NCBI GenBank assembly: GCA_964596875.1 | Contig: CAZQVT010000001.1 | Location: forward strand, 175,161 to 239,160 | Direction: 5' to 3' | Source of the DNA: an uncultured Candidatus Saccharibacteria bacterium | GTDB taxonomy: Bacteria > Patescibacteriota > Minisyncoccia > Phycocordibacterales > DATDWN01 | Length of the DNA: 64,000 bases | Part shown: in pieces, positions 5,149 through 46,091 of the stretch | How positions within the stretch are numbered: the first letter of the stretch is position 1 | How the letters are laid out: the number at the start of each line of letters is the position of its first letter | Translations under genes and position numbers: made by a program | Notes under the pieces: model-generated | What the model saw: the letters and a program-made list of their open reading frames with translations, nothing else | What the model was told of the DNA's origin: nothing | The model's database searches: none

Positions 5149-5163
5149 TTTATATTAAAAAAA

Positions 5164-5192
5164 TTGACGTTTATTTAAATAAATGATATACT
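5164..5192 (+). promoter_or_regulatory. sigma70-like promoter TTGACG-17-TATACT driving GC-rich small ORF
   Basis: near-consensus -35/-10 with 17-nt spacer ~55 nt upstream of ORF; GGGAGG RBS at ~5233. Confidence 0.55.
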
Positions 5193-5247
5193 ATATATAG
5201 GTTAATCCGCTCAAGGTTTTGCCTTGGGAGAAGGGAGGTAGATCAAA

Positions 5248-5460
5248 ATGACGCCACTTGCGAGTGAAGTACCGATCGTTCCGAGCATCATTCCTCTGTT
5301 GTTCGGTGAAGAGGGTGACTCCGGAGACGACGGAGACAACGGAAGCTCCGGAGACGACGGAGACGGCGGAACCGGTCAGGGTGATGATCCGGGGGATTCT
5401 TCGGGAGATGACTCCGGACCCGACCATGACGACTACGGTCACGACTCCGATGCCGACTAG
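5248..5460 (+). CDS. small acidic Asp/Gly/Ser-rich protein (70 aa), GC-rich minicassette 1
   Basis: ATG 9 nt downstream of GGGAGG; hydrophobic N-terminus then D/G/S low-complexity tail; internal DNA tandem repeats; GC far above flanks. Confidence 0.4.
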   Translation: MTPLASEVPIVPSIIPLLFGEEGDSGDDGDNGSSGDDGDGGTGQGDDPGDSSGDDSGPDHDDYGHDSDAD

Positions 5461-5486
5461 TTCGGCATGTGACTGACTGACGAGAG

Positions 5487-5513
5487 CGCCACTACCAATC
5501 CGGTAGTGGCGCT
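5487..5513 (+). terminator. hairpin GCGCCACTACC-AATCC-GGTAGTGGCGC after small ORF
   Basis: perfect 11-bp inverted repeat followed by short T stretch. Confidence 0.5.
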
Positions 5514-5539
5514 CGAACTTTTATATTATAATTTTACAC

Positions 5540-6820
5540 ATGAGTATATTTAGTGATTTTAATGTTGTAAGATCAGAAGATTTTCTTGAGAATGGCATTC
5601 GAGTAGTGCTTTTTAAACGTGAAGGTGCTCCAATTACTACCACAGCAATTTTAAAATCTGGTTCAAGACATGATCCCGAATCTATGCCAGGGTTATCACA
5701 TTTTATAGAACATATGATTACAAACGGGTCAAAAGTTTTTCCTACTAAGGATCTTTTGGCAGAACATATAGAATCGGTAGGTGGTGTTTATAGGGCTAGT
5801 ACAGGTCAAGATTCTATGATTGTAGACACTGAAATTTCTGATAGAGCTGATTATTCAAGGGTGGTTGATATCTTTAAGGCAACATTATGTGAACCGTTGA
5901 TGGATATAAAGGTTTTTGAGAATGAAAAAAAAGTGGTTGTGAAAGAAATTAAAAAAAGTGAGTCAAATCCATCTCAAATTGTGATAAAAACTGCAAGACA
6001 GTTATTTTTTTATGGCACTCCGCTTGAACATCCTGTTCTGGGCGATGAAAAAGCAATATTAGATTTTAAGTATGAGGATGTTTTAGATCAACATGTAAAA
6101 CTATTTGATAAATCACGAATTAGCATTATTGTATCTGGTGATATTGAGATGGATATGGTTATTGAAAAATTGAATGAAATTTCGTTTTTAGAAGGAAATA
6201 ATTTTTTGCCAAAGGCTGATAATCTGAATTTTTTAAACGAAAAAAAAATAAAATCAACTTTTTTTGATACAACTCAAACTTATATTTATTTTGGTGTCCA
6301 AGCCCCAGCCTCGTTTACTAAGGATTCTCTACATTTAAATATTCTAGGAAGCATTCTTGCCGGAGGAAGAAATTCAAGGTTAACAAAAAAATTGAGATAT
6401 GAAAAAGGATTGGTGTACAATGTTGGTTTCGGAAGAATTGGTGGAGTAAAACAGGGTTCATGGAATATAATTACTGATACCACCGAGGACAAGGTTCAAG
6501 AAGTTATTGATGAAATTATTAGTGAGATTAGTGATATTAGAAATTTTGGAGTTAAAGATTCAGAATTGGAGTTCGTTAAGAATAAGAGAATAAAATCATT
6601 GAAAAGAAATATGCAGACATCAAATGATTGGGTTGATTTTCATGCAATTGCTGAGGTTTTTTCGGAACAAACTTATAGCATAAATACTTATGTAGAAGAT
6701 ATAAAGAATACTACTGTAGAAGATATAAAAAAAGTAATAGATAAATACTTAGTTGATGACAAATGGAAATTAGCATTGTGTGGTAGAATAAAAGAAGAAT
6801 CAGTTAATATTAATTGGTAG
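5540..6820 (+). CDS. M16-family zinc peptidase (insulinase/pitrilysin-like)
   Basis: inverted zinc motif HFIEH near N-terminus, ~425 aa. Confidence 0.75.
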   Translation: MSIFSDFNVVRSEDFLENGIRVVLFKREGAPITTTAILKSGSRHDPESMPGLSHFIEHMITNGSKVFPTKDLLAEHIESVGGVYRASTGQDSMIVDTEISDRADYSRVVDIFKATLCEPLMDIKVFENEKKVVVKEIKKSESNPSQIVIKTARQLFFYGTPLEHPVLGDEKAILDFKYEDVLDQHVKLFDKSRISIIVSGDIEMDMVIEKLNEISFLEGNNFLPKADNLNFLNEKKIKSTFFDTTQTYIYFGVQAPASFTKDSLHLNILGSILAGGRNSRLTKKLRYEKGLVYNVGFGRIGGVKQGSWNIITDTTEDKVQEVIDEIISEISDIRNFGVKDSELEFVKNKRIKSLKRNMQTSNDWVDFHAIAEVFSEQTYSINTYVEDIKNTTVEDIKKVIDKYLVDDKWKLALCGRIKEESVNINW

Positions 6821-10633: not shown

Positions 10634-11305
10634 ATGGCGAAAAGCGTGAAAAAGGCTAAGGCTCGTCGAAACAACTGGAAGCGCGAAGCGACCGAAATCA
10701 TGGAGTTGCTGAAGGGCGCCAAGGCAACCATCGAGGCTCTCGAGCTCAAGCAGACTCAGTCGGATTCGGAGCTCGTCGGGGTGAAGGCCGAACTCGAATC
10801 GGCGAAGGCCGAACTCGACAAGGCCAAGGAAGAACTCGGTGCCGTGAAGGCCAAGTTGGCCGAAGTGGAGGCCGGCCTGTCGGCGCTGGAGACCACCAAC
10901 AAGGACCTGGTCAACAGGAACTTCGCTCTGGAAAGCGGCTTCTACGGCTCGCGTAGCAAGTCGCGTCGGCTCGAGAGTCGAAATCGCGAACTGCGGTTGG
11001 AAATCGACTCGCGCCGTCGGCTCGCCGGGGTTCTGGCTGTGTTTCATCACGCCAGTACCTGCACGGAGGACTGCTTAGAGGAGTTCGCGGCAGCCGGCCG
11101 GGCTGTGGGCGTCGACATCGACAAGATCGACAAGGCCCATGTGTCGGAAGCCTACAAGGCAGCCGGCCGTCGGCTTCACAAGCTGACCTGGGAGAAGGGT
11201 ATCCGCATGACCAAGTCGCACATGAGCCCTCAGTCAGCGACGGACTCACTCGAGGCTACGATCAACGCTGTCGAGCAGATGCTCGGGATGCGCGATCGGG
11301 TCTAG
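10634..11305 (+). CDS. coiled-coil hypothetical protein (223 aa), GC-rich minicassette 2
   Basis: heptad-like E/K/A/L-rich N-terminal half; strong RBS; GC ~58% vs ~35% flanks. Confidence 0.5.
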   Translation: MAKSVKKAKARRNNWKREATEIMELLKGAKATIEALELKQTQSDSELVGVKAELESAKAELDKAKEELGAVKAKLAEVEAGLSALETTNKDLVNRNFALESGFYGSRSKSRRLESRNRELRLEIDSRRRLAGVLAVFHHASTCTEDCLEEFAAAGRAVGVDIDKIDKAHVSEAYKAAGRRLHKLTWEKGIRMTKSHMSPQSATDSLEATINAVEQMLGMRDRV

Positions 11306-11323
11306 CCGAGGGGTGTAGAAGGT

Positions 11324-11358
11324 GGGGTGGCTTCGGTCGCCCCAGCTTCTTTTTTTTA
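11324..11358 (+). terminator. GC-rich hairpin + T9 run
   Basis: GGGGTGGC-TTCG-GTCGCCCC stem (with wobbles) followed by TTTTTTTTT. Confidence 0.6.
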
Positions 11359-20840: not shown

Positions 20841-20850
20841 AAGTTTTTGT

Positions 20851-20898
20851 AAACGAAAAGGCCGACACGATAGTCTGTATGACCTGATCGTATCGGCC
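20851..20898 (-). terminator. hairpin GGCCGA(T)ACGAT...ATCGT(G)TCGGCC + TTTTCGTTT ending GC-rich minicassette 3
   Basis: 11-bp imperfect inverted repeat followed by T run on - strand, just after stop of 20917 ORF. Confidence 0.55.
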
Positions 20899-20916
20899 GA
20901 AGCCCGTGTGTGTGGG

Positions 20917-21186
20917 CTAGAACCGCTTACTGACGTACTTGAGTGCTTCCCAGGTGAGTAACACCAGTGAGGAGTACACGATTGGCAGTGACGCCAGTCC
21001 GTACTCGTAGCTCTCGGTGAACATGGAGACCATGAGTCCCAGAGTCAGTACTCCGTGCAGAAGCAGGGGAACGAAGTACAGTACTATTGCAGGGAGAACG
21101 AGGCTAATGATTGCCCCGAACACCCTGAGCCACTTGTCGTCTCGATACCCGCCCATGAGGAGCGGGTTAAAGCCCAAGCATCCCAT
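20917..21186 (-). CDS. hypothetical small membrane protein (89 aa, ~2 TM), gene 3 of GC-rich minicassette 3
   Basis: ATG preceded by GGAGGAGCG; hydrophobic helices; GC-rich. Confidence 0.45.
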   Translation of the reverse strand: MGCLGFNPLLMGGYRDDKWLRVFGAIISLVLPAIVLYFVPLLLHGVLTLGLMVSMFTESYEYGLASLPIVYSSLVLLTWEALKYVSKRF

Positions 21187-21194
21187 CGCTCCTC

Positions 21195-21299
21195 CTACAT
21201 CTTGAAGGCGATAACCGCCAGGATTACGGCGATGCAGCCCAAGGCGAATTGGATTTCTCTTGTAGCCTTCTTGAAGTACTCGAACTGTTCTTCGGTCAT
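21195..21299 (-). CDS. 34-aa single-TM peptide (MTEEQFEYFKKATREIQFALGCIAVILAVIAFKM), gene 2 of minicassette 3
   Basis: not in ORF track (<60 aa); ATG 6 nt after TAGGAGGCT RBS; stop 8 nt before next ATG. Confidence 0.4.
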   Translation of the reverse strand: MTEEQFEYFKKATREIQFALGCIAVILAVIAFKM

Positions 21300-21309
21300 G
21301 CCTAGCCTC

Positions 21310-21735
21310 CTATCGAAGTTGGACCATCTCGCCGACCACGTCGTCCTTGCCTTCGAGGCTTTGGACGATGAAGTTGGTTGCTCCGCAGGCGTCGCAGAGG
21401 AACTTCACGACATCCATCTTCTGGATCTCGAGTTCCTCCACCTTGTCGATCGTGACGAAGTTCTTGTCGACGATCTTGCCGAGATGCACTCGGACCTTGC
21501 CCGTTGTGTTCAACTTGAACGCGATCACTCCGGGCTTGGTGTCGTACCGGAGCTTCATCCCGATGGCGCTGTGAGGCACGATGGTGAACTGGACGGAGTT
21601 TTCAAGTGCGATCGCGTACGGCTTCATGGGCTGGGTTGTTTCCACCCAGTAAACCATTGAAACTATCGCGACCGTGAGTGCGCAAATGACGAGTATTCCT
21701 CGCCAGTGGCGGGACAGAGTAGTGTCTTCGGTCAT
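21310..21735 (-). CDS. hypothetical membrane-anchored protein (141 aa, N-terminal TM), gene 1 of minicassette 3
   Basis: ATG 6 nt after GGAGGCC RBS, consensus promoter upstream. Confidence 0.5.
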   Translation of the reverse strand: MTEDTTLSRHWRGILVICALTVAIVSMVYWVETTQPMKPYAIALENSVQFTIVPHSAIGMKLRYDTKPGVIAFKLNTTGKVRVHLGKIVDKNFVTIDKVEELEIQKMDVVKFLCDACGATNFIVQSLEGKDDVVGEMVQLR

Positions 21736-21754
21736 GCTGTGGCCTCCGATATTA

Positions 21755-28336: not shown

Positions 28337-29800
28337 ATGAACGATAAAAAAGTAGTAACAAGATTCGCACCTAGTCCAACTGGGTTCATGCATATAGGCG
28401 GTGTTCGCACTGCTCTTTTTGCATACTTGTACGCTAAAAAAATGAAAGGTACTTTTATACTTCGTATCGAAGACACTGATAAGGCACGAGAAGTGGAAGG
28501 TTCAATAGGTCACATACAAGAGTCGCTAAAATGGCTAGGTATCGACCCAGACATAGGTCCAAACAATCCTGGCGAGTTCGGTACTGTTATCCAGTCTGAG
28601 AGACTTCCATCATATCTAGAGTATGCAAATAAACTAATAGAAAAAGGTTTGGCATATCCTGACCCCTATACTGCAGAAGAACTAGATGCTTTTCGTAAAA
28701 AAGCTGAGGAAGAAAAAAGACCTTTTCTGTACCGTGACCACAGACCAGAAAAATTTGAAACTTGGGATGGTAAAAAACCTTTGCGTCTAAAAGTTCCAGA
28801 AATAAAAAGATACAAATGGACCGATGCTGTTCGTGGTGAACTGGAGGCGGGACCAGAAGCACTAGATGACTTTGTGCTTATCAAAGCAGACGGATATCCG
28901 ACATACAACTTTGCACATATTATAGACGACTTAAACATGGGCGTGACACATATCATGCGCGCTGATGAGTTTATTTCTAGCATGCCAAAGTTTCTTTCAC
29001 TATATGATGCACTTGAAATCCCATATCCTGTTTTTGTAACACTTCCTCCTATACTTAAAGACGACCGCACAAAAAAACTTGGTAAAAGAGACGGAGCAAA
29101 AGATATTTTAGAATACAGAACAGAGGGATATCTGCCAGAAGCCATGGCAAACTTTCTCGCACTTATCGGTTGGAACCCGGGTACAGAACAAGAAGTATTT
29201 ACAAAAGATGAACTTATAAACGCATTTGAAATAGAAAAAATTCAGAAATCTGGAGGCGCATTTAACGAGGAAAAACTAGACTGGATGAACAAAGAGCACA
29301 TGAAAAGATTGGACTTAAAAACTGTAACAGACGAGATTGTTTCTCGTCTAAAAAAGTGTGACAAGTTTCAAAATAGTGAAAAGTTTGAAGACTCTGCATT
29401 TGTAGAGAAAGTTTGTCATATAATCTTTGACCATATTTCAAAATGGGGAGATGTAGATGTACAAGCAGGGGAGGGGGAATATGACTTTTATTTCGGCATA
29501 CCCGCATATGACACTACCCTACTTTCATGGAAGGGAAGTAGTCTAGAAAACTCCAAAAAACACCTTGAGTGGGTTTTGGAGAAACTATCTAGTTTGAATG
29601 AAGTAGAGTTTGCAGACGCAGAAAAAATAAAAGCGCATATTTTTGACTATGCTACAGAACAAGGACGTGGTGATGTATTGTGGCCGCTACGAGTTTCACT
29701 TTCTGGCCTAGAAAAAAGCCCTGACCCATTTTCACTTCTTTCTATATTTGGAAAAAATGAAAGCATAAACAGAATAAAAAATGCATTAAATAAGTTGTAA
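28337..29800 (+). CDS. gltX: glutamate--tRNA ligase
   Basis: N-terminal RFAPSPTGFMHIGGVRTALF (HIGH), KLGKRDG (KMSKS-like). Confidence 0.9.
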   Translation: MNDKKVVTRFAPSPTGFMHIGGVRTALFAYLYAKKMKGTFILRIEDTDKAREVEGSIGHIQESLKWLGIDPDIGPNNPGEFGTVIQSERLPSYLEYANKLIEKGLAYPDPYTAEELDAFRKKAEEEKRPFLYRDHRPEKFETWDGKKPLRLKVPEIKRYKWTDAVRGELEAGPEALDDFVLIKADGYPTYNFAHIIDDLNMGVTHIMRADEFISSMPKFLSLYDALEIPYPVFVTLPPILKDDRTKKLGKRDGAKDILEYRTEGYLPEAMANFLALIGWNPGTEQEVFTKDELINAFEIEKIQKSGGAFNEEKLDWMNKEHMKRLDLKTVTDEIVSRLKKCDKFQNSEKFEDSAFVEKVCHIIFDHISKWGDVDVQAGEGEYDFYFGIPAYDTTLLSWKGSSLENSKKHLEWVLEKLSSLNEVEFADAEKIKAHIFDYATEQGRGDVLWPLRVSLSGLEKSPDPFSLLSIFGKNESINRIKNALNKL

Positions 29801-29805
29801 AAATA

Positions 29806-31077
29806 ATGAGATGGCAGAAATACATACTTTTTCTAATACTCCTACTTTCAACTAGTATTGCTATTGCCCAAAACGCCACAACTTCAGAAGTTCTAAAAAA
29901 CAAAATCGACGAAAGAAACAACCAGATAAAAAAACTTGAAGAAGAAATAAAAGTCTACAACAAAGAAGTAGAAACTGCTGGCAAACAAGCCAAGACTTTG
30001 CAGACTACACTAAAAACTCTTGACCTTACCAAAAAGAAAATCGAAACGGATATTTCGCTTACAGAAAACAAAATAACTAAAACTACCCTAACTATAGATC
30101 AACTTGGTCAAGAAATAGGTACTACTAGAAGCAAAATAGATGTAAACAAACAGGCTATAAGTGCGGCACTCAAAAATAGACAGTACATGGACAGTACTGA
30201 CTTTATTAGTATGATGCTGTCGAAAAAAAGTCTGGGTGAAATATGGGGCGACATAGACGACATAGAGGAAGTTCGTGAAGCGATACGTGTAAAGACTTTG
30301 GAGTTAGACTCTCTAAAGAAAAATATGGAAAACAATCAAGAAAATCTAAAAGGTGAAAAGACCAACTTGGTTACCCTAAAACAAGACCTCTCTGGTAAAA
30401 AACAAGCCGTAGAATACACAACTCAGGAAAAGGCTGCGGTGCTAGTTGAAACAAAAAATAAAGAACAAACATACAAAGAACTTGTAAAAACAAAACAACA
30501 ACAAAAAGATCAGTTCGAGAAAGAACTTTTCGAATACGAGTCACAACTAAAATATCTTATCGACCCAAACAGTTACCCTAAAGGTAGAAGCGGAATTTTT
30601 GCGTGGCCACTAGATAAAGTTATCATTACACAAAAGTTTGGTAAAACTGTTGGCGCAGAAAAACTATACGCATCTGGTAGTCACAATGGTGTAGACTTTG
30701 GCGCAAGTATTGGAACAAGAGTTAAAAATGTTTTAGACGGAGAAGTTGTGGGTACAGGGGACACAGACAAATACCCTGGCTGTTACTCTTTTGGTCGCTG
30801 GGTTATGGTAAAACACGGCAATGGTCTCTCTACAATATACGGACACCTTTCTGTGATAAGTGTGCAGAAAGGTCAAACACTTAAGACTGGAGATACGATA
30901 GGTTTTTCTGGAAACACAGGTTACTCTACTGGTCCGCATTTACATATATCTGTTTATGCGACTCAAGGTGTGCGTATAGAAAAATACGTAAATAGTAGGG
31001 GATGTAAAGAGGCGACTCTCCCACTTGCCGACATCAAAGCCTACCTAGACCCACTGGCATACTTCCCATCACTTTAG
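29806..31077 (+). CDS. M23 family metallopeptidase with N-terminal coiled coil (EnvC-like)
   Basis: signal/TM, long coiled coil, HNGVDFGA...GNTGYSTGPHLH M23 motifs. Confidence 0.85.
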   Translation: MRWQKYILFLILLLSTSIAIAQNATTSEVLKNKIDERNNQIKKLEEEIKVYNKEVETAGKQAKTLQTTLKTLDLTKKKIETDISLTENKITKTTLTIDQLGQEIGTTRSKIDVNKQAISAALKNRQYMDSTDFISMMLSKKSLGEIWGDIDDIEEVREAIRVKTLELDSLKKNMENNQENLKGEKTNLVTLKQDLSGKKQAVEYTTQEKAAVLVETKNKEQTYKELVKTKQQQKDQFEKELFEYESQLKYLIDPNSYPKGRSGIFAWPLDKVIITQKFGKTVGAEKLYASGSHNGVDFGASIGTRVKNVLDGEVVGTGDTDKYPGCYSFGRWVMVKHGNGLSTIYGHLSVISVQKGQTLKTGDTIGFSGNTGYSTGPHLHISVYATQGVRIEKYVNSRGCKEATLPLADIKAYLDPLAYFPSL

Positions 31078-31101: not shown

Positions 31102-31308
31102 ATGAAAAAACCTAGAACAAACCAAGGATTTGTAGTGAAAATTGTTTTGATCATCGTTGCGCTTATCTTTGTGAAATACTATTTCCATATAGATATAGTT
31201 GAATGGTATAAGTCTCCTACAGGCCAAAAGTACGTTGGAAGTATCTGGAATATGATAAAGGACTTCTACAACTGGGCCGACAACTACGCTAGGACTAAGG
31301 TGTTTTAG
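31102..31308 (+). CDS. small hypothetical membrane protein (68 aa)
   Basis: ORF only; stop abuts stop of convergent RloB-like gene. Confidence 0.25.
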   Translation: MKKPRTNQGFVVKIVLIIVALIFVKYYFHIDIVEWYKSPTGQKYVGSIWNMIKDFYNWADNYARTKVF

Positions 31309-31830
31309 TTACGAATTGAATAATTTATGTATTTCAGGAAAGTATGTTTTGAAAATAATATTGTTTGGTATTATCTTTATTAAATCAATATTTTTCATGT
31401 GTTGTGCTTCCTTGCCGAAGTGGCTCAAAAAATTCTTTTTACAGATGGATCTGAAATTTTTTGAATCGATAGTATTTTTGATTTTTTTACCCACTATTTC
31501 CAGTAAGACACCCTCTGGATTGGGGTTACATAATTGAACTTTGTGGCGAAGACCTTTTATGTATAGTGCTATTTTTTGAGAATCATCAAGATCGTAGTCC
31601 GCCATAAAAAAGAAGTGGATTTTCTCACTTAGTTTTTTTGGTTTAATTTCATACTTTCGTGTTAAGCTAGAAACTTTATTACTGAAAGTCTTTAAGTCAT
31701 TAAACCCCCCCATAATCTCATATTTAAAAGATAAGGGCTTTGAGCAAAAATAAGTTTTGAAAAATCCAAAAAGATTGTATTCTGTGGGTCCTTCACAACA
31801 TATCACATATACATCCTTGGTACTTCTCAT
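31309..31830 (-). CDS. RloB-like (TOPRIM-like) protein, AbiLii-like
   Basis: N-terminal VYVICCEGPTEYNLF matches RloB family CEGxxTExxYF signature; 14 nt downstream of AAA_21 ATPase gene. Confidence 0.6.
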   Translation of the reverse strand: MRSTKDVYVICCEGPTEYNLFGFFKTYFCSKPLSFKYEIMGGFNDLKTFSNKVSSLTRKYEIKPKKLSEKIHFFFMADYDLDDSQKIALYIKGLRHKVQLCNPNPEGVLLEIVGKKIKNTIDSKNFRSICKKNFLSHFGKEAQHMKNIDLIKIIPNNIIFKTYFPEIHKLFNS

Positions 31831-31843
31831 AAATAGTTTATTT

Positions 31844-33052
31844 TTAAATAAATTGCTTGATCATGTGTTCGAATCCAATTGTATCAGGTGTGCCTCCAAG
31901 CAAACCGAGTCTATACTTCTTCTTTAAATTATCCCTATTTTTTACATCCTTCAATTCAGATACCTTGTAAACAATTGAATTATGCTTCTCTTTTTCCACA
32001 ATAAAAGTTTGATCAAGATTCAGGAGCTCTAAGGTTTCGTGATTATGTGTCGCAAAAAAAATTTGAGCATTACCAGTATTTATATCTTTGTTTTTAAATA
32101 AAGATATAATTGATTTCTCTATTTCTGGGTGAAAATACAAATTTGTCTCGTCATAGACAACTAAACCGCCCTTTTTGAAGACAGTAAGTAAATTATATAT
32201 ATGTGCAAAAAGCTCCTTTGTTCCAGCTGATTCTTGCATTAAATCTACGCTTTCATAAAAACCTTTATGTGAAACTTTCACTGATGATGTATTGTTTTCA
32301 ATATCAAGTGATTCAATAGTGTCGTCAAATCGACTCATTATATCTCTAGTAAGTTTTATCATTTCTTCTTTCTTGTTTTTTTCAGCAGTACTTATTCGAA
32401 ATGCATGAGATATTATTCCAAAAATAGTTGGCATAGAATCTAGCTCCGCAGTTTTCGTAAACCAGGACTTTAAATCCCTAAAATAATTAAAATCTTGACC
32501 AGCCCTAAACCCCTCTATTAGATGTGATAGAAGGGTTTGGTACTCAGCAAGCTTTAAAACTGAAAAATATGATTTATGATCTTTGAAGTCTGGGCCAAAA
32601 GTTATTTTTCCATTGAGTCTGTTGAATACAAGCTTAGGTTTTCCAGATTTTAACTTTGTGTTAGTTACGAACAGAGTTTCCGAGCTAATATTTTTTCTAT
32701 CCTTAATTTCTATGTCGTATTTGTAATAGTTTTCATTCAACAAAATATCTATACCAAGCTTGGTTGGTTTATTTTTAAAAGTAGAATGAAAGTTGTTGTA
32801 GGCTAAAATAGTGTCTTTTTGTTCAGGAGTAAGTGTTGTTTTTGTATACATTAAACGTATAAGCGAACTGATTGCTTTTAAAATAGTACTTTTGCCACTA
32901 GCATTAGCACCGTAGAATCCATTTAGAAGAGAAATCTTCTGATTTTTAAAGTTTAAATATCCATCTTCAGTAGTAGAACCTCCCTTTATAAAGTTCAATT
33001 CTAGTGGTTTACCAACAGAATAAAAGTTTGCTAAACGTATTTTTGTTATCAT
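31844..33052 (-). CDS. AAA_21/ABC-type ATPase, RloA/AbiLi-like
   Basis: Walker A GANASGKST, Walker B VVYDE, H-loop ATHNHE; 402 aa; low GC. Confidence 0.7.
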   Translation of the reverse strand: MITKIRLANFYSVGKPLELNFIKGGSTTEDGYLNFKNQKISLLNGFYGANASGKSTILKAISSLIRLMYTKTTLTPEQKDTILAYNNFHSTFKNKPTKLGIDILLNENYYKYDIEIKDRKNISSETLFVTNTKLKSGKPKLVFNRLNGKITFGPDFKDHKSYFSVLKLAEYQTLLSHLIEGFRAGQDFNYFRDLKSWFTKTAELDSMPTIFGIISHAFRISTAEKNKKEEMIKLTRDIMSRFDDTIESLDIENNTSSVKVSHKGFYESVDLMQESAGTKELFAHIYNLLTVFKKGGLVVYDETNLYFHPEIEKSIISLFKNKDINTGNAQIFFATHNHETLELLNLDQTFIVEKEKHNSIVYKVSELKDVKNRDNLKKKYRLGLLGGTPDTIGFEHMIKQFI

Positions 33053-33557
33053 ATTAATATTTATGCAATAAAATGTACAATTTAAAGTATAGTACCTTAA
33101 ATTAAATACGTCAAACCTTAGGGCAGGGGACTTCCCTACAAATAATAGGAAATTTTAGAACCTCAAATAATGGGGTTCGGATGGTAAAAGGGGTGCTATC
33201 TAGGTACCTAGAAAAGAGAACTCTAAGCCAATTATTTGGTGCATTTTTATATATAAATATTTAATGAAAACCATTTAATGATTAAACTGAACAAACGAAT
33301 CTTTTGAGCAAACCCCCTTAGGGACTATGCTAAAAAGATATATTGTGCGACACGGCTATATACTCCCCCCCTCTATATAACTAACTAAAAACAATAAAAC
33401 ATTTAATTACTAAAATAATTGAATATGTAATTATTTTGCATCAAAAAAATCCCGCCCCCACCCCACCCTGGTTCAGCCGGTTTACACAAAAGTAAAAATA
33501 CATATACTTATTACGAAACACAATATCCGTTCTTTTCGGTTTCTGGAGGTTCGCGCC

Positions 33558-34007
33558 ATGAATGGCATTGAAGGAAACGTTCAGCTGGTGTTCGTGCTGA
33601 TGGGCGTGATCTCTGGTCTTTTGGGCGGAATTGCCCACGCCAAGAAACGGCACGGTTTGGGGTGCTACAAGAACGGCACTCTGAGTCTGACACCACAGTG
33701 GTACCGCTGTGGCAGTTGCTGGACTGCCGTAGTCTTCTACGCGGTTTTCATGGGCTGCATTTTTGCGCTCATGCACGACATTTACTACGCTGGCACTCAG
33801 ACAGTTGGAGGTGCCATCGGACAAGTTGTCGTCACGTTTTTTGGTGTCATATTGTCTGCCGTGTTGACGTTAGCGGTGGCACTGCTGGGCTTGCTTGCCA
33901 TCGGCTACTCGGAACATCGCTGGCCTCAGTGTCGTAAGTATAAGTGGATCTCCTACAGCTTCGCAGTCATCGTTCGAACGTATCTCTATCACCTCACTAG
34001 ATACTAG
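33558..34007 (+). CDS. hypothetical integral membrane protein (149 aa, ~4 TM, Cys-containing), GC-rich minicassette 4
   Basis: ATG 7 nt after GGAGG; GC-rich. Confidence 0.45.
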   Translation: MNGIEGNVQLVFVLMGVISGLLGGIAHAKKRHGLGCYKNGTLSLTPQWYRCGSCWTAVVFYAVFMGCIFALMHDIYYAGTQTVGGAIGQVVVTFFGVILSAVLTLAVALLGLLAIGYSEHRWPQCRKYKWISYSFAVIVRTYLYHLTRY

Positions 34008-34028
34008 GAGCGCAGACAACCACCACAC

Positions 34029-34077
34029 ATCGCAAGTCGCAAGATCCGGAGGATCGCAAGGCGACTTGCGATTTTCC
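34029..34077 (+). terminator. 12-bp perfect hairpin ATCGCAAGTCGC...GCGACTTGCGAT + TTT
   Basis: immediately after 33558-34007 ORF; two further small hairpins follow. Confidence 0.55.
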
Positions 34078-34198
34078 ATATATAAAAATACAGGCTACTT
34101 GCCTGTTTCACATAAATACAAATAGCCCTTGCGGGCCATTTGTCTAATTAGTATAACTCTGGGGCTTTTGTATAGATAGTAAGTTATGCACAGGTAAC

Positions 34199-34232
34199 AA
34201 AAGACCACCTTTCTTTCGATTGGTGGTCTTTT
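34199..34232. terminator. bidirectional hairpin AAAAGACCACC...GGTGGTCTTTT
   Basis: A-run/T-run flanked perfect 7-bp GC-containing stem, 2 nt from stop of 34235 gene. Confidence 0.55.
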
Positions 34233-34234
34233 GT

Positions 34235-34705
34235 TTATTTGTTTATGGCTATTTGATTTGAACCATCATTTAGGTATTTACCCCAACAAGGCTTTGATGA
34301 AATCCAAGGTTGTGTTCCCTGTCTCTCATACAAGTCTCGGGCGTAAGCAGTATTTCCTTCGATAGTGTAGATATCCATACCTTTGTCAGTTGCAGTATCC
34401 AAGTGGTAATACTCGTTTATCTGCATAACTCCAACATCGGCATTGTTTACTCTACCTCGGTGAATTTCTCCGTCCTCGTCTAGTTGTCTAAATGTAGACT
34501 CACAACGAGCAATCTGTACCATGATAGGAATATCTTTGAAGTACTGACGAACGTACTGTTCTGTACTCATCATCTTTTCAACTTCTTTGTTTGATATTTC
34601 TCTTACTACTTTGTATGAGGAGTTTTCTACTTTTGGCTGTGTATTTCCTAGGACCTTTACGTTTGCTGTAGTAGTACCTGTAAATGTGGAAAGAACCATG
34701 AACAA
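34235..34705 (-). CDS. secreted lysozyme-like / lytic transglycosylase domain protein
   Basis: signal peptide; CES...GVMQIN resembles SLT/GEWL catalytic Glu-Ser and MQI motifs. Confidence 0.5.
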   Translation of the reverse strand: MFMVLSTFTGTTTANVKVLGNTQPKVENSSYKVVREISNKEVEKMMSTEQYVRQYFKDIPIMVQIARCESTFRQLDEDGEIHRGRVNNADVGVMQINEYYHLDTATDKGMDIYTIEGNTAYARDLYERQGTQPWISSKPCWGKYLNDGSNQIAINK

Positions 34706-36053: not shown

Positions 36054-36160
36054 GATTGTTATTATAAGGTTTTTTTGGGTAATGTATAGGTTTGACCACA
36101 CCCTATCTATAATGTAGTCTGTATTGTGGAATACGGGTCATCTTGGCCCACGGAGAAACC

Positions 36161-36496
36161 ATGAGCGAGTCTCTTTTGGGTGAGGTTAAGTTCCCAGTGC
36201 AGTTTGCCTGCGATATCTGCGGGCATCACTTTTCGTGCGAGCGAGAGGGCCTGAAGAGCCACGAAGTCAACAGGAGGCACTTTATCAGACTGATTCGTAC
36301 CACGGTCGTTGCGGCCTGTCCCGCGTGCGATGCAAACGTGGGCAGATCATTCGATGAGCTGCTTCCGGATGCTCCTAACACTCTCGGTGAACTGCGAGCG
36401 CAGTACAAAGTCGCCCGCGGCAACGGTGCTGGGCCTCTCGAGGCCATCGGCTTCGCCAAGTTCAAGATTCGTCTCGTCAAGCGGAGGATCGCATGA
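36161..36496 (+). CDS. hypothetical Cys4 zinc-ribbon protein 1, GC-rich minicassette 5
   Basis: CxxC...CxxC, Arg/Lys-rich tail, GGAG RBS; ATG 36161 preferred over TTG 36143. Confidence 0.4.
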   Translation: MSESLLGEVKFPVQFACDICGHHFSCEREGLKSHEVNRRHFIRLIRTTVVAACPACDANVGRSFDELLPDAPNTLGELRAQYKVARGNGAGPLEAIGFAKFKIRLVKRRIA

Positions 36497-36783
36497 ATCG
36501 TCAGCGCCATCGGTTTGTATGCAGCAATTGTAGTACCTCATTCGAACCGGAGTGTCCGGTCGTCCCAACGGAGAACGTTCGGTCTGAAGTTCCGAAGGCG
36601 AAGCTCCTGGAGGCGAGTTGTCCGCTTTGCGGTTACACGGTCAAGATGATCGTGAACGGAGTGTTGGACATCGAGAGGCTTCATAGCGATCCGGTGAAAC
36701 GTCAGTACTTCCATCACAGGCGTCGCGGAATGGATGCTCCTCTAGCCAGGCGCTTGGCGAACCGGCTCGCCACAAGAAACTAG
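36493..36783 (+). CDS. hypothetical Cys4 zinc-ribbon protein 2 (translationally coupled)
   Basis: ATGA start/stop overlap with previous ORF, GGAGG RBS, CxxC...CxxC, basic C-terminus. Confidence 0.4.
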   Translation: MNRQRHRFVCSNCSTSFEPECPVVPTENVRSEVPKAKLLEASCPLCGYTVKMIVNGVLDIERLHSDPVKRQYFHHRRRGMDAPLARRLANRLATRN

Positions 36784-36806
36784 TTCCCGCCCCTCTGGGG
36801 CATACC

Positions 36807-36841
36807 AGCCCGTGGCCGAGTTCGCTCGTCGCGGGCTTTGT
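36807..36841 (+). terminator. hairpin AGCCCG...CGGGCT + TTT after zinc-ribbon pair
   Basis: 6-bp GC stem with weak U tract; also GCCCC-TCT-GGGGC hairpin at 36789-36801. Confidence 0.4.
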
Positions 36842-36853
36842 CACATCTCTTTG

Positions 36854-38755
36854 CTATTTATTGTCTTCTGGTTTCTTTTCCTCAAAGTCCGCGTCTCGAA
36901 CATTATCCCCTTCTTGTTTTGGAGCCTCAGTTCCAGCACTAGCGTTTGCTTTGTTTATCGCCTCCCCTATTTTAGATGTTTCGTTTGAAAGATCTACAGT
37001 AGCTTTTTTAATCGCTTCTATCTCTGAAGCAGTATTTGCAAGTACATCTTTCAATGCTTTAGATTTTTCTTCTACACTTGCTTTTACATCACTAGGCACT
37101 TTGTCGCCTGCATCTTTTAATGCTTTTTCTGCTGTGTAGATAAGTTGCTCACCAATGTTTTTTGCTTCAACAAGATCTTTTTTCTTTAAGTCGTCTTGTG
37201 CGTGCATCTCTGCGTCCTTTTGCATTTTTTCTATGTCCTCTTTAGAAAGTCCAGAACGAGCCTCTATGCGAATAGACTGCTCTTTGTTTGTCGCTTTATC
37301 TTTTGCTTTTACTGATAGGATTCCGTTTGCATCTACATCAAATGAAACTTCTACCTGAGGCATACCTCTTGGTGCAGGTGGAATACCGTCTAGAATAAAT
37401 CTACCTAGGGACTTGTTGTCACTTGCCATCGCTCTTTCACCTTGAACAATGTGAATTTCTACAGAAGTTTGATTGTCGGCTGCCGTAGAGAAAACTTGTG
37501 AACGACTTGCAGGGATAGTCGTGTTTCTCTCAACTAGTTTTGTTGCAACACCTCCCATAGTTTCGATACCAAGAGAAAGTGGAATAACATCTAGAAGTAG
37601 AACGTCTTTAACATCACCAGCAAGTATTCCACCTTGGATAGCAGCACCTAGGGCTACAACTTCGTCTGGGTTTATAGACTTGTTTGGATCTTTCTGGAAG
37701 AACTCTTTAACTTTTTCTGCAATTTTTGGCATTCTTGTCTGTCCTCCTACTAGGATAACTTCATTTACTTGTGAAGTAGAAAAACCTGAAGCCTCCATAG
37801 CTCTTTTTGTGATAGCCATTGCTCGGTCAATGAATTCTGCTGTAAGCTCCTCTAGTTTTGCTCGAGTTATTTTTATAAGCAAGTGTCGTGGACCAGAAGC
37901 ATCAGATGTTATGAACGGAATATTTACTTCAGACTCCATTGCCGTAGAAAGTTCTATTTTTGCTTTCTCTGCAGCCTCATCAAGGCGCTGTAGTGCTAGA
38001 GTGTCGCCTCTTAGGTCTATACCAGATTCCTTTTTAAATTCATCTGCAAGGAAGTTAATAATTTTTTGGTCAATATCTTTACCTCCCAAGTGTGAGTCTC
38101 CGTCTGTAGATTTTACCTCTATAACAGAGTCCCCTACTTCTAGAACTGACACGTCGAATGTTCCGCCTCCAAAGTCGAACACTACGATTTTCTCTTCTTT
38201 TTTACCCTTGTCAAAACCGTATGCAAGTGCTGCGGCTGTTGGCTCGTTTATGATTCGCAATACTTCAAGACCTGCAATAGCGCCAGCGTCTTTTGTTGCC
38301 TGTCTTTGTGAGTCGTTAAAGTATGCAGGCACTGTGATGATAGCCTGTGTTACTTTCTCACCTATTTTTGCTTCTACATCTGCTTTGATTTTTGAAAGCA
38401 CCATTGCAGATATTTCTTCTGGAGAATAGTTTTTATCTCCCATCTTTACACTTACCCCGCCCGTAGAGCCTTTTGAAACAGCAAAAGGAACTATTGCTTT
38501 GTCTTTTTGAACAGCTTCATCGTCAAATGTGTGACCAATGAATCTTTTGATCCCAAAAACTGTGTTTGTTGGGTTTGTTACTGCCTGTCTTTTTGCTAAG
38601 AGGCCCACAAGTCTTTCACCAGTTTTAGATGTTGCGATGATAGAAGGTGTTGTTCTTGCACCCTCTGAGTTTTCTAATATTTTTGGTTGCCCTGCTTCCA
38701 TGATTGCGACAGCAGAGTTTGTTGTACCTAAGTCGATACCTATTATTTTTGCCAT
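36854..38755 (-). CDS. dnaK: molecular chaperone DnaK (Hsp70)
   Basis: [16 protein letters not shown], full 633-aa Hsp70. Confidence 0.95.
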
Positions 38756-39838: not shown

Positions 39839-39891
39839 AGGACTGTATTTTAACACAAAAAATATATGGGTCAAATGTAGCACTTTGATTT

Positions 39892-39913
39892 AGTCGCCAT
39901 AGTACGAGGCGGT
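39892..39913 (+). repeat. direct repeat DR1 (AGTCGCCATAGTACGAGGCGGT, extends to ~35 nt)
   Basis: identical 22-mer at 40240-40261; both followed by (T)TTTTCGT. Confidence 0.7.
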
Positions 39914-39956
39914 CATTTTCGTATAAATATGTTATGTTAATTTCGGAGGTGCACAG

Positions 39957-40220
39957 ATGGCTTTTTGTCGACTTACTCGTGTAGTAAAGAAAGATGGAAC
40001 CACCAGGGATGTACTCCAGGTGTTTTACGATGATCAAAAGATCGAACCGGTAATTCTTGAAAAAGGAGAAGGAACTCAATATGTTATAGAAGGGACCACA
40101 ACCATCTTTGGGAATTCAGAAGAAATGCTTCCCGAAGATCTCAAGGCTGAGGTGCTGGCGATTCGTGATTCGATTGAGCGTGGTGAATTCGTAGACATTG
40201 ATCACAAGCTCGACAAGTGA
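39957..40220 (+). CDS. hypothetical small protein (87 aa), minicassette 6
   Basis: GGAGG RBS 7 nt upstream; 5'UTR homologous to cassette 3; flanked by direct repeats. Confidence 0.4.
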   Translation: MAFCRLTRVVKKDGTTRDVLQVFYDDQKIEPVILEKGEGTQYVIEGTTTIFGNSEEMLPEDLKAEVLAIRDSIERGEFVDIDHKLDK

Positions 40221-40239
40221 CCGTCACGTACGGCGATTA

Positions 40240-40261
40240 AGTCGCCATAGTACGAGGCGGT
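40240..40261 (+). repeat. direct repeat DR2 (terminator-like CGCC...GGCG + T6)
   Basis: copy of DR1 348 nt downstream. Confidence 0.7.
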
Positions 40262-40460
40262 TTTTTCGTTGGGTGATCTCTTAGTCTAGAGTAATTTACT
40301 CGTCGCCACTCCTAAATTCTCTCCGACCGCTGACTCGCTTGTTTTGTTTGCTAACAAAACATAGCTCCGTCTTCGAAGAGTAAAGAAAAAGCCCCATAAA
40401 AGGGGCTGTTTTCTATCTCTTCGACCAATGTGGAACGAAAATTTATTAAAATTTTCTCCT

Positions 40461-40517
40461 GGGAAACCCACAGTTTTCCCAATCTTTCCTCCACGGGAAA
40501 ACACCCAGTTTTCCCGA
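40461..40517. repeat. two tandem near-identical hairpins (C/T)GGGAAAAC-ACCCA-GTTTTCCC
   Basis: 9-bp stems 34 nt apart, REP-like. Confidence 0.55.
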
Positions 40518-40526
40518 CCCCTTTCT

Positions 40527-40594
40527 GCACCTCAGTGGAGTAAAAGAAAAACGCCCCTAAGGGCGTTAGTCTATCTTTTACTCCACTGAGGTGC
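40527..40594 (-). terminator. 20-bp perfect inverted repeat hairpin whose one arm is the last 7 codons of rpsI, nested canonical terminator in loop
   Basis: GCACCTCAGTGGAGTAAAAG...CTTTTACTCCACTGAGGTGC; loop contains CGCCCTTAGGGGCG+T5 on - strand. Confidence 0.6.
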
Positions 40595-43833: not shown

Positions 43834-44211
43834 TTATTTCTTATCGGCTACTTTTCTACCAGTACCCATAGTTTTCTTGGCACCTCGTTTAGTTCTGGCA
43901 TTAGTTTTAGTTCTTTGGCCTCGTACAGGAAGGTTTCGAGCGTGTCTTGTGCCTCTGTAAGTCTTGATATCTTTTAGTCTTTTAATGTTTCCAGCAACAT
44001 CTCGCTTTAGGTCTCCCTCTATTTTAAGAGTTTCAATAACCTTTCTGATAGCATTTTCTTGGTCAATAGTAATATCCTTTGGCTTTGTGCCATAGTCTAC
44101 CTTTGCCTTATCCAAAATAGTGTGAGAAAGAGAACGTCCTACACCGTAAAGCACAGTTAGTCCAATTTCAATTCTTTTCTCTTCTGGTATTGTGATTCCA
44201 AGTATTCTCAT
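43834..44211 (-). CDS. rpsM: 30S ribosomal protein S13
   Basis: MRILGITIPEEKR... S13 signature. Confidence 0.9.
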   Translation of the reverse strand: MRILGITIPEEKRIEIGLTVLYGVGRSLSHTILDKAKVDYGTKPKDITIDQENAIRKVIETLKIEGDLKRDVAGNIKRLKDIKTYRGTRHARNLPVRGQRTKTNARTKRGAKKTMGTGRKVADKK

Positions 44212-44236
44212 TTTGATATTTATTTAAATTTAGTTT

Positions 44237-44353
44237 GTTTGAGCTATTATCCTTGTCTTTGCTTGTGTCTTGCGTTTGCCGAACACACAACATAAACATA
44301 GCCCTTTCTTCGGACTACTTGGCAACTTGGACAGATTTTTTTAACAGATGATT
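44237..44353 (-). CDS. rpmJ: 50S ribosomal protein L36 (38 aa, [38 protein letters not shown])
   Basis: not in ORF track (<60 aa); hand-translated from reverse complement; zinc-ribbon CxxC...C...H pattern; between rpsM and infA. Confidence 0.8.
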
Positions 44354-44365
44354 TAACTTTCATAT

Positions 44366-44587
44366 TTATACTCTTTTTACAATCCTACCTTTTCCTCCAT
44401 ACGGATCGATTTCTACAGCGACTTTGTCGCCAACAAGAACTCGGATTCTGTGTAATCGCATTTTCCCTGAAAGATAAGTTAACATTTCCACCTCATTATC
44501 AAGTCTTTTAACCTTGAAAAACGTATTTGGAAGGGCCTCTATAACTTGGGCCAAAACAGCATCATCTTTTTTATTTTGATCCTGCAT
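44366..44587 (-). CDS. infA: translation initiation factor IF-1
   Basis: S1-like OB fold ...[28 protein letters not shown]; start at MQDQNKK. Confidence 0.85.
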
Positions 44588-44699
44588 TATTATATGTATC
44601 TTTTTTGAAAAATAACTATTAAGTAAAACCCTCAAACGCTCAAAATTTGTACAAGTAACATCCTAACAGAACTATGGGTATTAAGTCAATGCCCTAGCC

Positions 44700-46091
44700 C
44701 TATTCTAAAGTTAAGGTATTTACAAGGCTTACATCCTCTGGGTTTCTAGGTATGTTTTGGTTCCAAAAAGGCTTGGTTTCGATCCATGCTTCACTAACTG
44801 CTGGATACTGACTTATGACCACTTTTGCTGACTTTTTAGAGAGGCCAAGTAACTCAGTTTTAAGTTTGTTTTCATCAAAAACCCATACAAAATTAGCATT
44901 TCCTCCTATAGTAAACGATACTTGCTTGTCCACATCAGTAAAATTGTTTATCTTGAATTCTAGACTAGAAAGGTTAAGTATTTTTACAGCCTCAGACTCA
45001 ACATCAGGCATGAGTTTGTTTAGTAAGGCCTTTGAAAGTGCCCCCTTATCAAAAATAATAGCAGTTACTTTTGCTTTCTTTCGCAATGTCACATCTTGTT
45101 TGGTTGTGTCAGGAACTTGGACAGTATTTTCAAATTCAAATGAAAGTCCGTCTTTATACGAAACAAAATTTGCTGGTATTTGAGCTTCGATATCTTTAAG
45201 AAGAGTTGCTTCCAGTTCAGTTTTCATTTCTTTGTCTGAAGCGTCTAGTGTTTCCTTAGAAACCACTTTTTGCATACCAGAAAAACCTCCTGTCATTTCT
45301 GTCTTTGATCTAGCGTACACAGATGTATATTTAGGATCGCCCTTAAAACCAGGAATAGTAAAGTCTTTTAGGCCAATGTTGTAGGAAACTCCAGGTTTGT
45401 CTGCTTCTACAGTGACTTCTACGCTTCCCGGCACTGTTTTGCCGTCTTTTACCTCTCTACCAGGCACAGTTGCGGGAGCTATAAGTCTAAAAATAAGGCC
45501 TTCTGGGGTTTGGAAACGAGTAGTAGCAACAAGTTTTTGTGGCTGATTGTTAAAGTTGTTATAAATCACGATCTTTCCAGAACTTTTTCTATCTACTTTT
45601 TCTTCTCCAGAGGCTTTCGCTGTTTTTTCTATATCTTTAGACACGGTTACAGTCTGGAAACTTAAACCAGTCGCAACATCTTTTTTCGCGGTAAATGACT
45701 CTGAAATAGTTTTCTGTTCCTGTTTTGGAGAAATTTTTACAGTCGCTTTTTTGAAAAAAGCAGATACTGCAAATGCCAAAACTAAAATTAATACAAGTGA
45801 AGAAATGTAAAACCATTTTTTAGAAGGTTTTTTAGGTTCATTGAACTCGTATTTGTATGAAGGGGCATTGAAAGTCTCTGGAGGAGTTTTTATAAGTGGC
45901 TCTATCTTCATAGGAGCCTGTTTTATTATTGGAACTGGTCTAGAAAAGTCTTCTGCCATTTTAGGCATTTCTTCTGGCTCATCACGGTATTTTGGAGTCG
46001 GTGCCGGCTTTTCAGTTTCTCGTCTTCCAGCGAGTTTAACATTTCGAATAGATTTTTTAGGAACTACGTCCTGTACTACGTTCTTTTTCAT
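44700..46091 (-). CDS. hypothetical membrane-anchored protein (Pro/Lys-rich cytoplasmic N-terminus, one TM, large external domain); possibly PilN/O-like
   Basis: 463 aa; TM at ~aa 95-117; follows actin-like ATPase gene. Confidence 0.35.
   Translation of the reverse strand: MKKNVVQDVVPKKSIRNVKLAGRRETEKPAPTPKYRDEPEEMPKMAEDFSRPVPIIKQAPMKIEPLIKTPPETFNAPSYKYEFNEPKKPSKKWFYISSLVLILVLAFAVSAFFKKATVKISPKQEQKTISESFTAKKDVATGLSFQTVTVSKDIEKTAKASGEEKVDRKSSGKIVIYNNFNNQPQKLVATTRFQTPEGLIFRLIAPATVPGREVKDGKTVPGSVEVTVEADKPGVSYNIGLKDFTIPGFKGDPKYTSVYARSKTEMTGGFSGMQKVVSKETLDASDKEMKTELEATLLKDIEAQIPANFVSYKDGLSFEFENTVQVPDTTKQDVTLRKKAKVTAIIFDKGALSKALLNKLMPDVESEAVKILNLSSLEFKINNFTDVDKQVSFTIGGNANFVWVFDENKLKTELLGLSKKSAKVVISQYPAVSEAWIETKPFWNQNIPRNPEDVSLVNTLTLE

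Follow-up and report, generated by a model that had tools for sequence, protein, structure and literature searches.

A probable dif site within a conserved intergenic element at the replication terminus of a candidate-phyla-radiation bacterium

We analyzed a 64,000-nucleotide stretch of contig CAZQVT010000001.1 (here called the window) and focused on the intergenic gap that begins at position 33053. Toward its middle lies a conserved element (33119-33375) with an embedded 28-bp core (33326-33353), which we take to be probably the chromosome's dif site, where Xer recombinases would resolve chromosome dimers at the replication terminus. This assignment is built on the conservation of the core, on its architecture, on its location where genes converge and the GC skew switches sign, on polar motifs that point to it and flip their orientation there, and on prophages that lie between direct repeats of the core in other contigs. 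The source of the window is a bacterium of the candidate phyla radiation: its DnaJ protein retrieved 36 loci, at up to 85% identity, in metagenome-assembled genomes labelled Zambryskibacteria, Parcubacteria, Saccharibacteria and Minisyncoccia.

The core contains an invariant block, AAAAGATATATTGTGCGACAC, that forms the centre and the right arm of a palindromic site of 11+6+11 bp. From 128 unique sites a family consensus GTGTCGCAAAA-GATATA-TTGTGCGACAC was derived, whose arms are inverted repeats at 10 of 11 positions and whose 6-bp centre is AT-rich; the family 28-mers contain TTGTGCGAC. Known dif sites consist of two inverted arms of about 11 bp around a centre of 6-8 bp, 28-31 bp in total (PMC3025954, PMC5357621), and this layout is found in the family consensus, while the left arm of the window copy agrees with that consensus at only 5 of 11 positions. 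The centre and the right arm are invariant across the 17 genomes of alignment A1, whose DnaJ proteins are 65-85% identical, with the run A-T-A-T-A-T-T-G-T-G-C-G-A-C unchanged in all of them. The window holds a single copy of the core, and most loci have one full copy each.

Two architectures occur in the family. In one, seen at 65 of 125 sites, left and right arm pair with each other; in the other, which is that of the window's group, additional arm-like palindromes are inserted and the left arm co-varies instead with a partner upstream. A hairpin like the one that overlaps the left arm in the window, with quite different yet complementary stems, was found with confidence in about 23 loci. In one locus (L084) arm-like sequences alternate as L,R,L,R,L,R, and what resembles a three-way junction can equally be described as a tandem of three dif-like sites, separated by spacers of 6, 10 and 6 nt. 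Several metagenome loci have a second, partial copy (..ATATTGTGCGAC) that lies 0.6-1.9 kb away from the full one as a direct repeat (positions 2963/3594 in L102, 1249/1846 in L147, 5246/7099 in L135, 3555/5071 in L097, 818/1965 in L058 and 533/1362 in L139), and such pairs may bracket small inserted modules.

The element that surrounds the core is present in 17 related Parcubacteria genomes and, with the invariant block as the query of a metagenome scan, in at least 120 contigs among the matches listed. In a blastn comparison of the region 31-36.2 kb, positions 33310-33400 (33185-33399 in the closest relative) are 75-94% identical to the relatives, at a level equal to or above that of the flanking coding DNA. 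Two anchors, AGGGCAGGGGACTTCCCTA and AAAAGATATATTGTGCGACACG..TATATA..CTCCCCTCT, are spaced 187-223 nt apart in the 17 genomes. The closest relative, L001, carries the element without the ATPase gene pair and without the GC-rich open reading frame (ORF) that flank it in the window; there the stop codon of a small ORF is 10 nt from the element, and on its 3' side unrelated DNA is followed by the transglycosylase-like gene. In the relatives, the slot that separates the element from the gene after it measures anywhere from 24 nt to 4 kb.

The position of the element in the chromosome is in line with that of a dif site. Genes in the window are on the plus strand before about 31 kb and on the minus strand after it, and the GC skew is positive and then negative, with its cumulative peak at about 31-31.8 kb; because gene orientation and skew both switch there, we place the gap at the replication terminus. 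The core itself is found at 33.3 kb, with a 1.8-kb AbiL insertion between it and the skew peak. Of the 47 loci whose flanks reach 2 kb or more to either side, 40 have genes that converge on the element and none has diverging ones; the skew turns from positive to negative in 35.

The distribution of short G-rich motifs adds a further line of evidence. FtsK orienting polar sequences (KOPS) are characterized by a leading-strand skew of at least 90% and, in the neighbourhood of dif, a frequency of one or more motifs per 40 kb, and their consensus in E. coli is GGGNAGGG (PMC3384302). AGGGGA(G) and GGGNAGGG are the most strand-polar oligomers in the present data, and they switch orientation at the core. 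Over about 1 Mb of flanking sequence, the copies that point toward the core outnumber the others by 559:38 for AGGGGA, 220:7 for AGGGGAG, 66:0 for AGAGGGGA and 42:1 for GGGCAGGG, and by 137:7 for GGGNAGGG, counted in 129 related loci only; in the window the counts are 50:0 for GGGGA and 25:0 for AGGGGA, the latter corresponding to one motif per 2.5 kb. GGGGA is the most skewed pentamer and AGGGGA(G) heads the rankings of hexamers and heptamers by ratio, while composition-matched hexamers reach only 1.4-4.9:1, so that skew and frequency both fall within the range of KOPS and exceed what base skew would lead one to expect. The density of the motifs increases toward the core. In ORFs on the opposite strand the polarity is kept, with 37:7 for AGGGGA and 20:1 for AGGGGAG, and it therefore tracks the replichore rather than the coding strand. 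Immediately around the core one motif faces inward from either side (Table 1); the right-hand one is the first reversed G-run past the core, C/TCCCCT is found about 12-14 nt beyond the right arm in 17 of the 17 genomes of A1, and the relatives read AGAGGGGAG at this position.

Elements that exploit the Xer system have a recognizable hallmark, an integrase-less filamentous prophage between direct repeats of the centre and one arm (PMC5357621, PMC9765430). When viral contigs were scanned with GATATATTGTGCGAC, 85 stretches matched, which is about the chance level for a 15-mer, but the strict pattern of the full 28-mer gave 22 sites, beyond chance. By eye, a left-arm-like GTCG(C/T)AAAA is discernible at some 35-40 of the viral-contig sites, many of which are on contigs of 4-6 kb. 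Five contigs of 10-11 kb (L212, L214, L226, L234 and L236) contain two direct copies of the core 5.1-5.9 kb apart, one a full site and the other with a different left arm. The interval in L212 holds genes for a Zot-like ATPase and for a rolling-circle replication initiator; at the DNA level its only relative is a virus of 5.4 kb in which a Zot protein is annotated, and a scan of this one contig against Pfam and PHROGs gave no integrase match. MurG is encoded on the flank of all five contigs and is about 30% identical to the MurG of the window. The five contigs derive from hosts of low GC content (31-33%) and several of them have flanks in common, which suggests tandem arrays of different elements. 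Use of the site by integrase-less mobile elements (IMEX) is thus evident for the family and not for the window, where no prophage of the L212 type is present; a megablast search of 31-36 kb against phage records returned no matches.

Several observations weigh against identifying the core as dif. In the metagenome loci the invariance of the core arises by construction, as these loci were retrieved by the core itself, and the prophage-bearing contigs come from other hosts. The synteny of GltX, M23 peptidase, site and transglycosylase is kept in many loci, so that the counts of convergent genes are not independent observations; what they do indicate is a retained terminus position. A GGGGA within 250 nt upstream occurs in 62 of 110 loci, compared with about 23% expected from background density, and is thus enriched without being universal. 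The scanned window ORFs include neither a xer nor an ftsK gene. By the criterion of Kono et al., positions 7-12 of a dif site should form more than four complementary pairs with positions 17-22; by hand count the window copy has three of six and the family consensus four of six, although in the consensus each of the outer positions 1-6 does find its complement in 23-28. Besides being degenerate in the window, the left arm is not conserved within its clade, and it co-varies with upstream sequence into a palindrome that includes the first nucleotides of the core centre. We know of no described dif site that needs such a palindrome of left arm and upstream sequence, and mainly because this co-variation is left unexplained our confidence in the dif assignment is not higher. 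The core agrees with the dif site of E. coli at 17 of 28 positions, which likewise speaks against the assignment, and with that of B. subtilis at 15 of 28.

The gap has a structured appearance, and a sequence-only reading of this region had proposed that it might hold a small RNA. In such a case 33119-33375 would be a structured non-coding RNA on the plus strand, possibly the 3' end of the transcript that covers the M23 gene and the small ORF, with GGGGA and UCCCC as a closing helix that encloses several hairpins and with the invariant AAGAUAUAUUGUGCGAC as a functional loop or binding site. The plus strand of the window does fold with z = -2.3, the two anchors keep a fixed spacing, and several hairpins maintain their pairing through different stems, as in ATGTTTTGTACTAC.../...GTAGTACAAAACAT of L002 and ATCTTTTGAGCG.../...CGCTCAAAAGAT of L003. 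The hairpin ATTGTGCGATG...CGTTGCACAAT shows recurrent G-T pairs, which are wobble pairs only on the plus strand, and where the right arm is fixed, left-arm mismatches comprise 29 G-T and 8 A-C. In the variable stems, however, this asymmetry disappears, with 34 G-T against 35 A-C mismatches in the arm extensions and about 11 and 12, respectively, in some 23 confident ATCTTTTG...CAAAAGAT hairpins. Across 28 genomes both strands fold about equally well (mean z of -3.5 and -3.0, p=0.06; these z-scores from mononucleotide shuffles), and the strand-specific structure that would mark a novel non-coding RNA was not found. A loop together with its stem, GGTGCTATCTAGGTACC at 33192-33208, is replaced by a sequence close to its reverse complement (GGTAGGTAGATAGCACC) in L003, L008 and L011, an inversion of a stem-flanked loop at the DNA level. 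Symmetric mismatches, folding on both strands and the inverted loop therefore argue for DNA palindromes rather than for selection on an RNA from one strand. RNAalifold, applied to A1 as aligned with MAFFT, found no compensatory pairs and only 12 invariant ones, the middle of the element being unalignable, and the GGGGA/TCCCC pair is conserved as sequence without ever co-varying, as the genome-wide polarity of the motif explains. No Rfam family matched the window at its gathering score, and between 32900 and 34300 nothing sensible appeared at E<=10, the best match being at E=0.73, well under threshold. Nor does an RNA gene predict copies of the core as direct repeats around prophages. We regard a structured RNA as improbable and do not read the gap as a whole as an RNA gene.

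It is very unlikely that the element serves only as transcriptional punctuation between convergent operons, made up of terminators and protein roadblocks, with its terminus position a matter of inherited synteny. It does sit between the 3' ends of convergent genes, the synteny is indeed kept across many loci, and terminator-like hairpins are enriched in the region (5 against 1.3 expected), yet the hairpins within 33119-33375 have no U-runs on either strand, terminators are not invariant over 20 nt among genomes with proteins of 65-85% identity, and the 11+6+11 palindrome, the flip of the polar motifs and the core-flanked prophages would all go unexplained. The sequence-only reading had also mentioned a cassette attachment region, and of its suggestions this one came closest to the evidence if understood as an Xer/dif-like site, a kind of site where integrase-less mobile elements are known to attach, while its integron sense did not hold. 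For the core to be the attachment site of a dedicated integrase or integron-like system, with the GC-rich ORF unit as a captured cassette, there is in our view only a very slight chance. In its favor are the variable slot next to the element, the ORF unit that terminates in a long perfect inverted repeat, and five GC-rich islands in the window that the relatives lack. Against this, neither the scanned window ORFs nor the scanned prophage yielded an integrase, the five islands have no repeats or boundary motifs in common as integron cassettes with attC sites would, no second copy of the core lies beside the ORF unit or the AbiL module, and the ORF unit begins about 95 nt past the core rather than at it. 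The larger slots of the relatives contain genes of housekeeping type (a Y-family polymerase, pyrimidine-synthesis enzymes, a helicase), as judged from translations and not from family libraries; since these genes are also co-oriented with replication, we rejected the idea that large slots beside the site are mobile islands. Finally, we entertain as a tentative and rather doubtful variant of the dif assignment that the site consists of a half-site and a hairpin, where a variable self-complementary palindrome replaces the second arm next to the invariant arm and centre, and a motif for FtsK loading is fixed 12-14 nt away. The nearby arm-like palindromes would then be functional accessory sites or scars of the attP hairpins of single-stranded phages, and, separately, the GC-rich small genes with a high GC content at the third codon position (GC3), seen here and at corresponding places in the relatives, could form a distinct fast-evolving or mobile class that settles in intergenic sites of these AT-rich genomes.

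Table 1. Positions of the core, its surrounding element and the neighbouring features in the window.
Feature	Position	Strand	Remarks
FtsW and MurG genes		+	
GltX gene	28337-29800	+	
M23 peptidase gene	29806-31077	+	
68-aa ORF	31102-31308	+	
AbiLi/AbiLii module	31309-33052	-	
173-aa protein	31309-31830	-	AbiLii-like
AAA_21 ATPase	31844-33052	-	AbiLi-like
Promoter-like TTGACG-17-TATACT	33086-33114	-	consensus scan, 10/12 matches; right edge of AbiL module
Conserved terminus element	33119-33375	+	left anchor AGGGCAGGGGACTTCCCTA, variable palindromes, dif-like core, right-hand CTCCCCCCCTCT
Left polar motif	33121-33130	+	GGGCAGGGGA; matches GGGNAGGG and AGGGGA; points to core
Palindrome	33299-33339		ATCTTTTGAGCA...TGCTAAAAAGAT; 3' arm overlaps degenerate left arm and first 3 nt of core centre
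dif-like 28-mer (core)	33326-33353		TATGCTAAAAA-GATATA-TTGTGCGACAC; centre and right arm identical to consensus
Right polar motif	33363-33374	-	CTCCCCCCCTCT on plus strand, AGAGGGGGGGAG on minus strand; points back to core
GC-rich transcription unit	33447-34076	+	C-run, promoter-like sequence, GGAGG, ORF, terminator
C-run of GC-rich unit	33451-33468	+	
Promoter-like TTTACA-16-TATACT	33481-33508	+	
GGAGG	33545-33549	+	
149-aa ORF	33558-34007	+	follows the gap; four hydrophobic segments, Cys-rich loops
Terminator stem	34029-34040/34061-34072	+	followed by TTTT; end of GC-rich unit
Conserved hairpins (34090-34232)	34090-34106, 34118-34143, 34196-34230		3' of convergent lytic-transglycosylase-like gene; terminator-like on minus strand
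Lytic-transglycosylase-like gene	34235-34699	-	154 aa; name from motifs by eye only
DnaJ, DnaK and GrpE genes		-	beyond lytic-transglycosylase-like gene

In the sequence-only reading the gap and the cassette downstream of it had been described as a single unit, which the comparison with the relatives splits up; the region comprises three unrelated things, the conserved element, the AbiL insertion and the GC-rich unit. The ancestral element holds both copies of CCTTAGGG (33116 and 33316), the T-loop-like motif GGGGTTCGGATGG and the first C-run, CTCCCCCCCTC (33364-33374); the second C-run, CCCGCCCCCACCCCACCC, belongs with the ORF and the perfect 12-bp stem to a lineage-specific GC-rich unit, and the last hairpins are part of the 3' region of a neighbouring conserved gene. 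The individual features were for the most part read correctly from the sequence. The gap is non-coding, with no ORF of at least 40 aa entirely inside 33053-33440, and the remaining ORFs that touch its 3' part are minus-strand ORFs within the GC-rich unit. The two CCTTAGGG copies and both C-runs are present as had been described, but the repeat is weak on its own: its four occurrences in the window compare with an expected 1.1, and 2 of 100 shuffles give at least as many. The T-loop-like motif is likewise present, although it is not tRNA-like but one arm of a small hairpin at 33158-33178, and a search for tRNA and tmRNA genes found none. The length of the gap had been thought unusual for so compact a genome; other gaps of 390-750 bp at 5148-5540, 36101-36854, 39883-40571 and 44211-44700 contradict this.

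To the left of the element the conserved order is interrupted by the AbiL module, whose insertion extends from 31309 to about 33112, between the stop codon of the 68-aa ORF and the element. This hydrophobic ORF directly follows the M23 gene, is conserved in 16 loci and in the relatives ends a few nucleotides before the left polar motif. The composition of the module is that of an AbiL (RloA/RloB-like) abortive-infection defence pair, an AAA_21 ATPase (by Pfam) with a small partner; PADLOC identified AbiLi with E=5e-55 and AbiLii weakly, with only E=3e-4. By tblastn no homologs of either protein were found in 156 related loci, and the module is also present on an independent Logan contig (L157, from the assembly of SRR12712864) beside an M23 peptidase gene. 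No copy of the core flanks the module in the window. The gap had also been suggested to contain the promoter of RloA/B genes, which is plausible for a 66-bp sliver, where TTGACG-17-TATACT lies upstream of the start of the RloA-like AbiLi at 33052, and not for the rest of the gap; as promoter-scan matches in the region do not exceed those in shuffles (6 against 6.4 expected), this match is weak. The consensus left arm GTGTCGCAAAA recurs without mismatch inside abiLi, at 32047-32057, probably by coincidence: read on the minus strand it codes for FFATH, a motif of the ATPase, and no right arm lies next to it.

To the right, the GC-rich membrane-protein gene is real and self-contained, and the four transmembrane segments, the GGAGG and the perfect stem had all been recognized from the sequence, as had the hairpins beyond it. 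Its GC content is about 52% against about 36% for the window, and by codon position it amounts to 0.52/0.42/0.64, compared with 0.53/0.34/0.29 in GltX and a GC3 of about 0.30 in housekeeping genes. The exact 149-aa protein is not on record, and no homolog emerged from 5.8 billion proteins: a word-index search gave none, and the sole match of an exhaustive HMMER search, a 1078-aa repeat protein aligned over 14 short stretches, was judged spurious. The ORF recurs on an independent Logan contig (L158) beside the 154-aa gene. In L003, L067 and L159 the same place and strand are occupied by a GC-rich gene for a 67-aa protein with two transmembrane segments and with conserved H..C..PW.RC and C-terminal NGGF motifs, and a profile of these proteins retrieved only one further member. 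Compared with the 149-aa protein, this profile aligns only in a 20-column H..C..W.RC..W segment (hhalign E=0.003, probability 9.7%), which is suggestive of homology between the positional counterparts, and the longer protein may be a diverged, duplicated version of the shorter one. The window offers no evidence of site-specific recombination for the GC-rich unit, as no second copy of the core flanks it. The hairpins at 34090-34232 are ancestral and lie outside the unit, and L001 and L003 can be aligned with the window from 34114 on; a 41-nt hairpin region (34115-34155) is 90-94% identical in L009 and L012, above the gene itself (about 66-76%).

In all, five intergenic islands of 53-63% GC, against about 36%, are found in the window (5250-5550, 10650-11350, 20850-21750, 36150-36850 and 33447-34076). 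They are mutually dissimilar and only their edges match DNA of the relatives; the ORFs in the islands (223, 201, 117 and 96 aa) gave no meaningful NCBIfam match. The 96-aa ORF (36493-36783, plus strand), between DnaJ and DnaK, has a zinc-ribbon-like pattern CSNC...C.LCGY and by eye resembles a 105-aa ORF of 55% GC at the same position and strand in L159 (8330-8647, CSNC...CKCGY). GC-rich small genes directed against replication may thus recur at fixed intergenic positions in this clade.

If the core is the dif site, a mechanism can be proposed after the model established for E. coli, B. subtilis and L. lactis. At the septum, FtsK would translocate on the DNA and, by analogy, read the polar motifs AGGGGA(G) and GGGNAGGG, which would aim it at the site from both replichores, with the nearest inward-facing copies bracketing the core on the top and the bottom strand. 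On reaching the invariant right arm, presumably the XerD-type side, it would activate strand exchange over the 6-bp GATATA. From the sequence we infer that Xer and FtsK act here, that the arms can tentatively be assigned to their proteins in this way, and that the window copy may be active in spite of its degenerate left arm. As at other termini, the flanks have gathered strain-specific DNA, AbiLi/AbiLii on the left and the GC-rich gene for the small membrane protein on the right.

As a dif site, the core would mark the replication terminus in fragmented metagenome-assembled genomes, allow a test of whether reduced genomes keep the FtsK-Xer pathway, and tie integrase-less filamentous phages to uncultured hosts. 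It would also point to a hotspot for the build-up of defence and orphan genes, and the RNA-like appearance of the gap arises from palindromes at the DNA level together with polar motifs. We found no paper on a dif site or an FtsK-guiding motif in Patescibacteria or the candidate phyla radiation.

Of the systems described elsewhere, the XerCD/dif system (E. coli, B. subtilis) shares with the present site the length of 28 bp, the 11+6+11 layout in which AA/TT border an AT-rich centre of 6 bp, one arm that is far better conserved than the other, and, within the window, a single copy at the switch of skew and gene orientation. Converging polar G-rich motifs are common to both, as are filamentous phages without a detected integrase at the site, here in other contigs. 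Unlike in XerCD/dif, the consensus arms are near-perfectly palindromic out to their ends, more as in sites of a single recombinase, the weaker arm of the window's clade is unconserved and forms a variable palindrome with upstream DNA, and an inward-facing polar motif is fixed 12-14 nt from the conserved arm. Palindromic arms are also a property of XerS/difSL, XerH/difH, the XerL/dif of Legionellales and archaeal XerA/dif, suggesting that one protein may bind both arms, and as for XerL of Legionella it is a mobile element with a copy of the site that reveals it (PMC9765430). For XerS and XerH, however, the recombinase gene adjoins the site (PMC5357621), whereas here its neighbours are the M23 operon and the lytic-transglycosylase-like gene, and the centre has 6 bp in place of the 11 bp of difSL. 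With KOPS, the SpoIIIE recognition sequences (SRS) and the architecture-imparting sequences (AIMS) (GGGNAGGG, GAGAAGGG, GAAGAAG) the polar motifs have in common that they are 6-8-mers rich in G, show a leading-strand skew above 90% close to the terminus, occur once per 1-2.5 kb with a density that rises toward the site, and include GGGNAGGG itself; they differ in the core AGGGGA(G), whose recognition by FtsK-gamma is putative and assumed by analogy. Lastly, the five paired-core elements resemble the IMEX phages CTXphi, VGJphi and TLCphi in being flanked by direct repeats of centre and one arm, in the Zot-like ATPase, rolling-circle Rep and lack of an integrase match seen in L212, and in an apparently tandem arrangement of some, with the difference that they reside in other, low-GC hosts.

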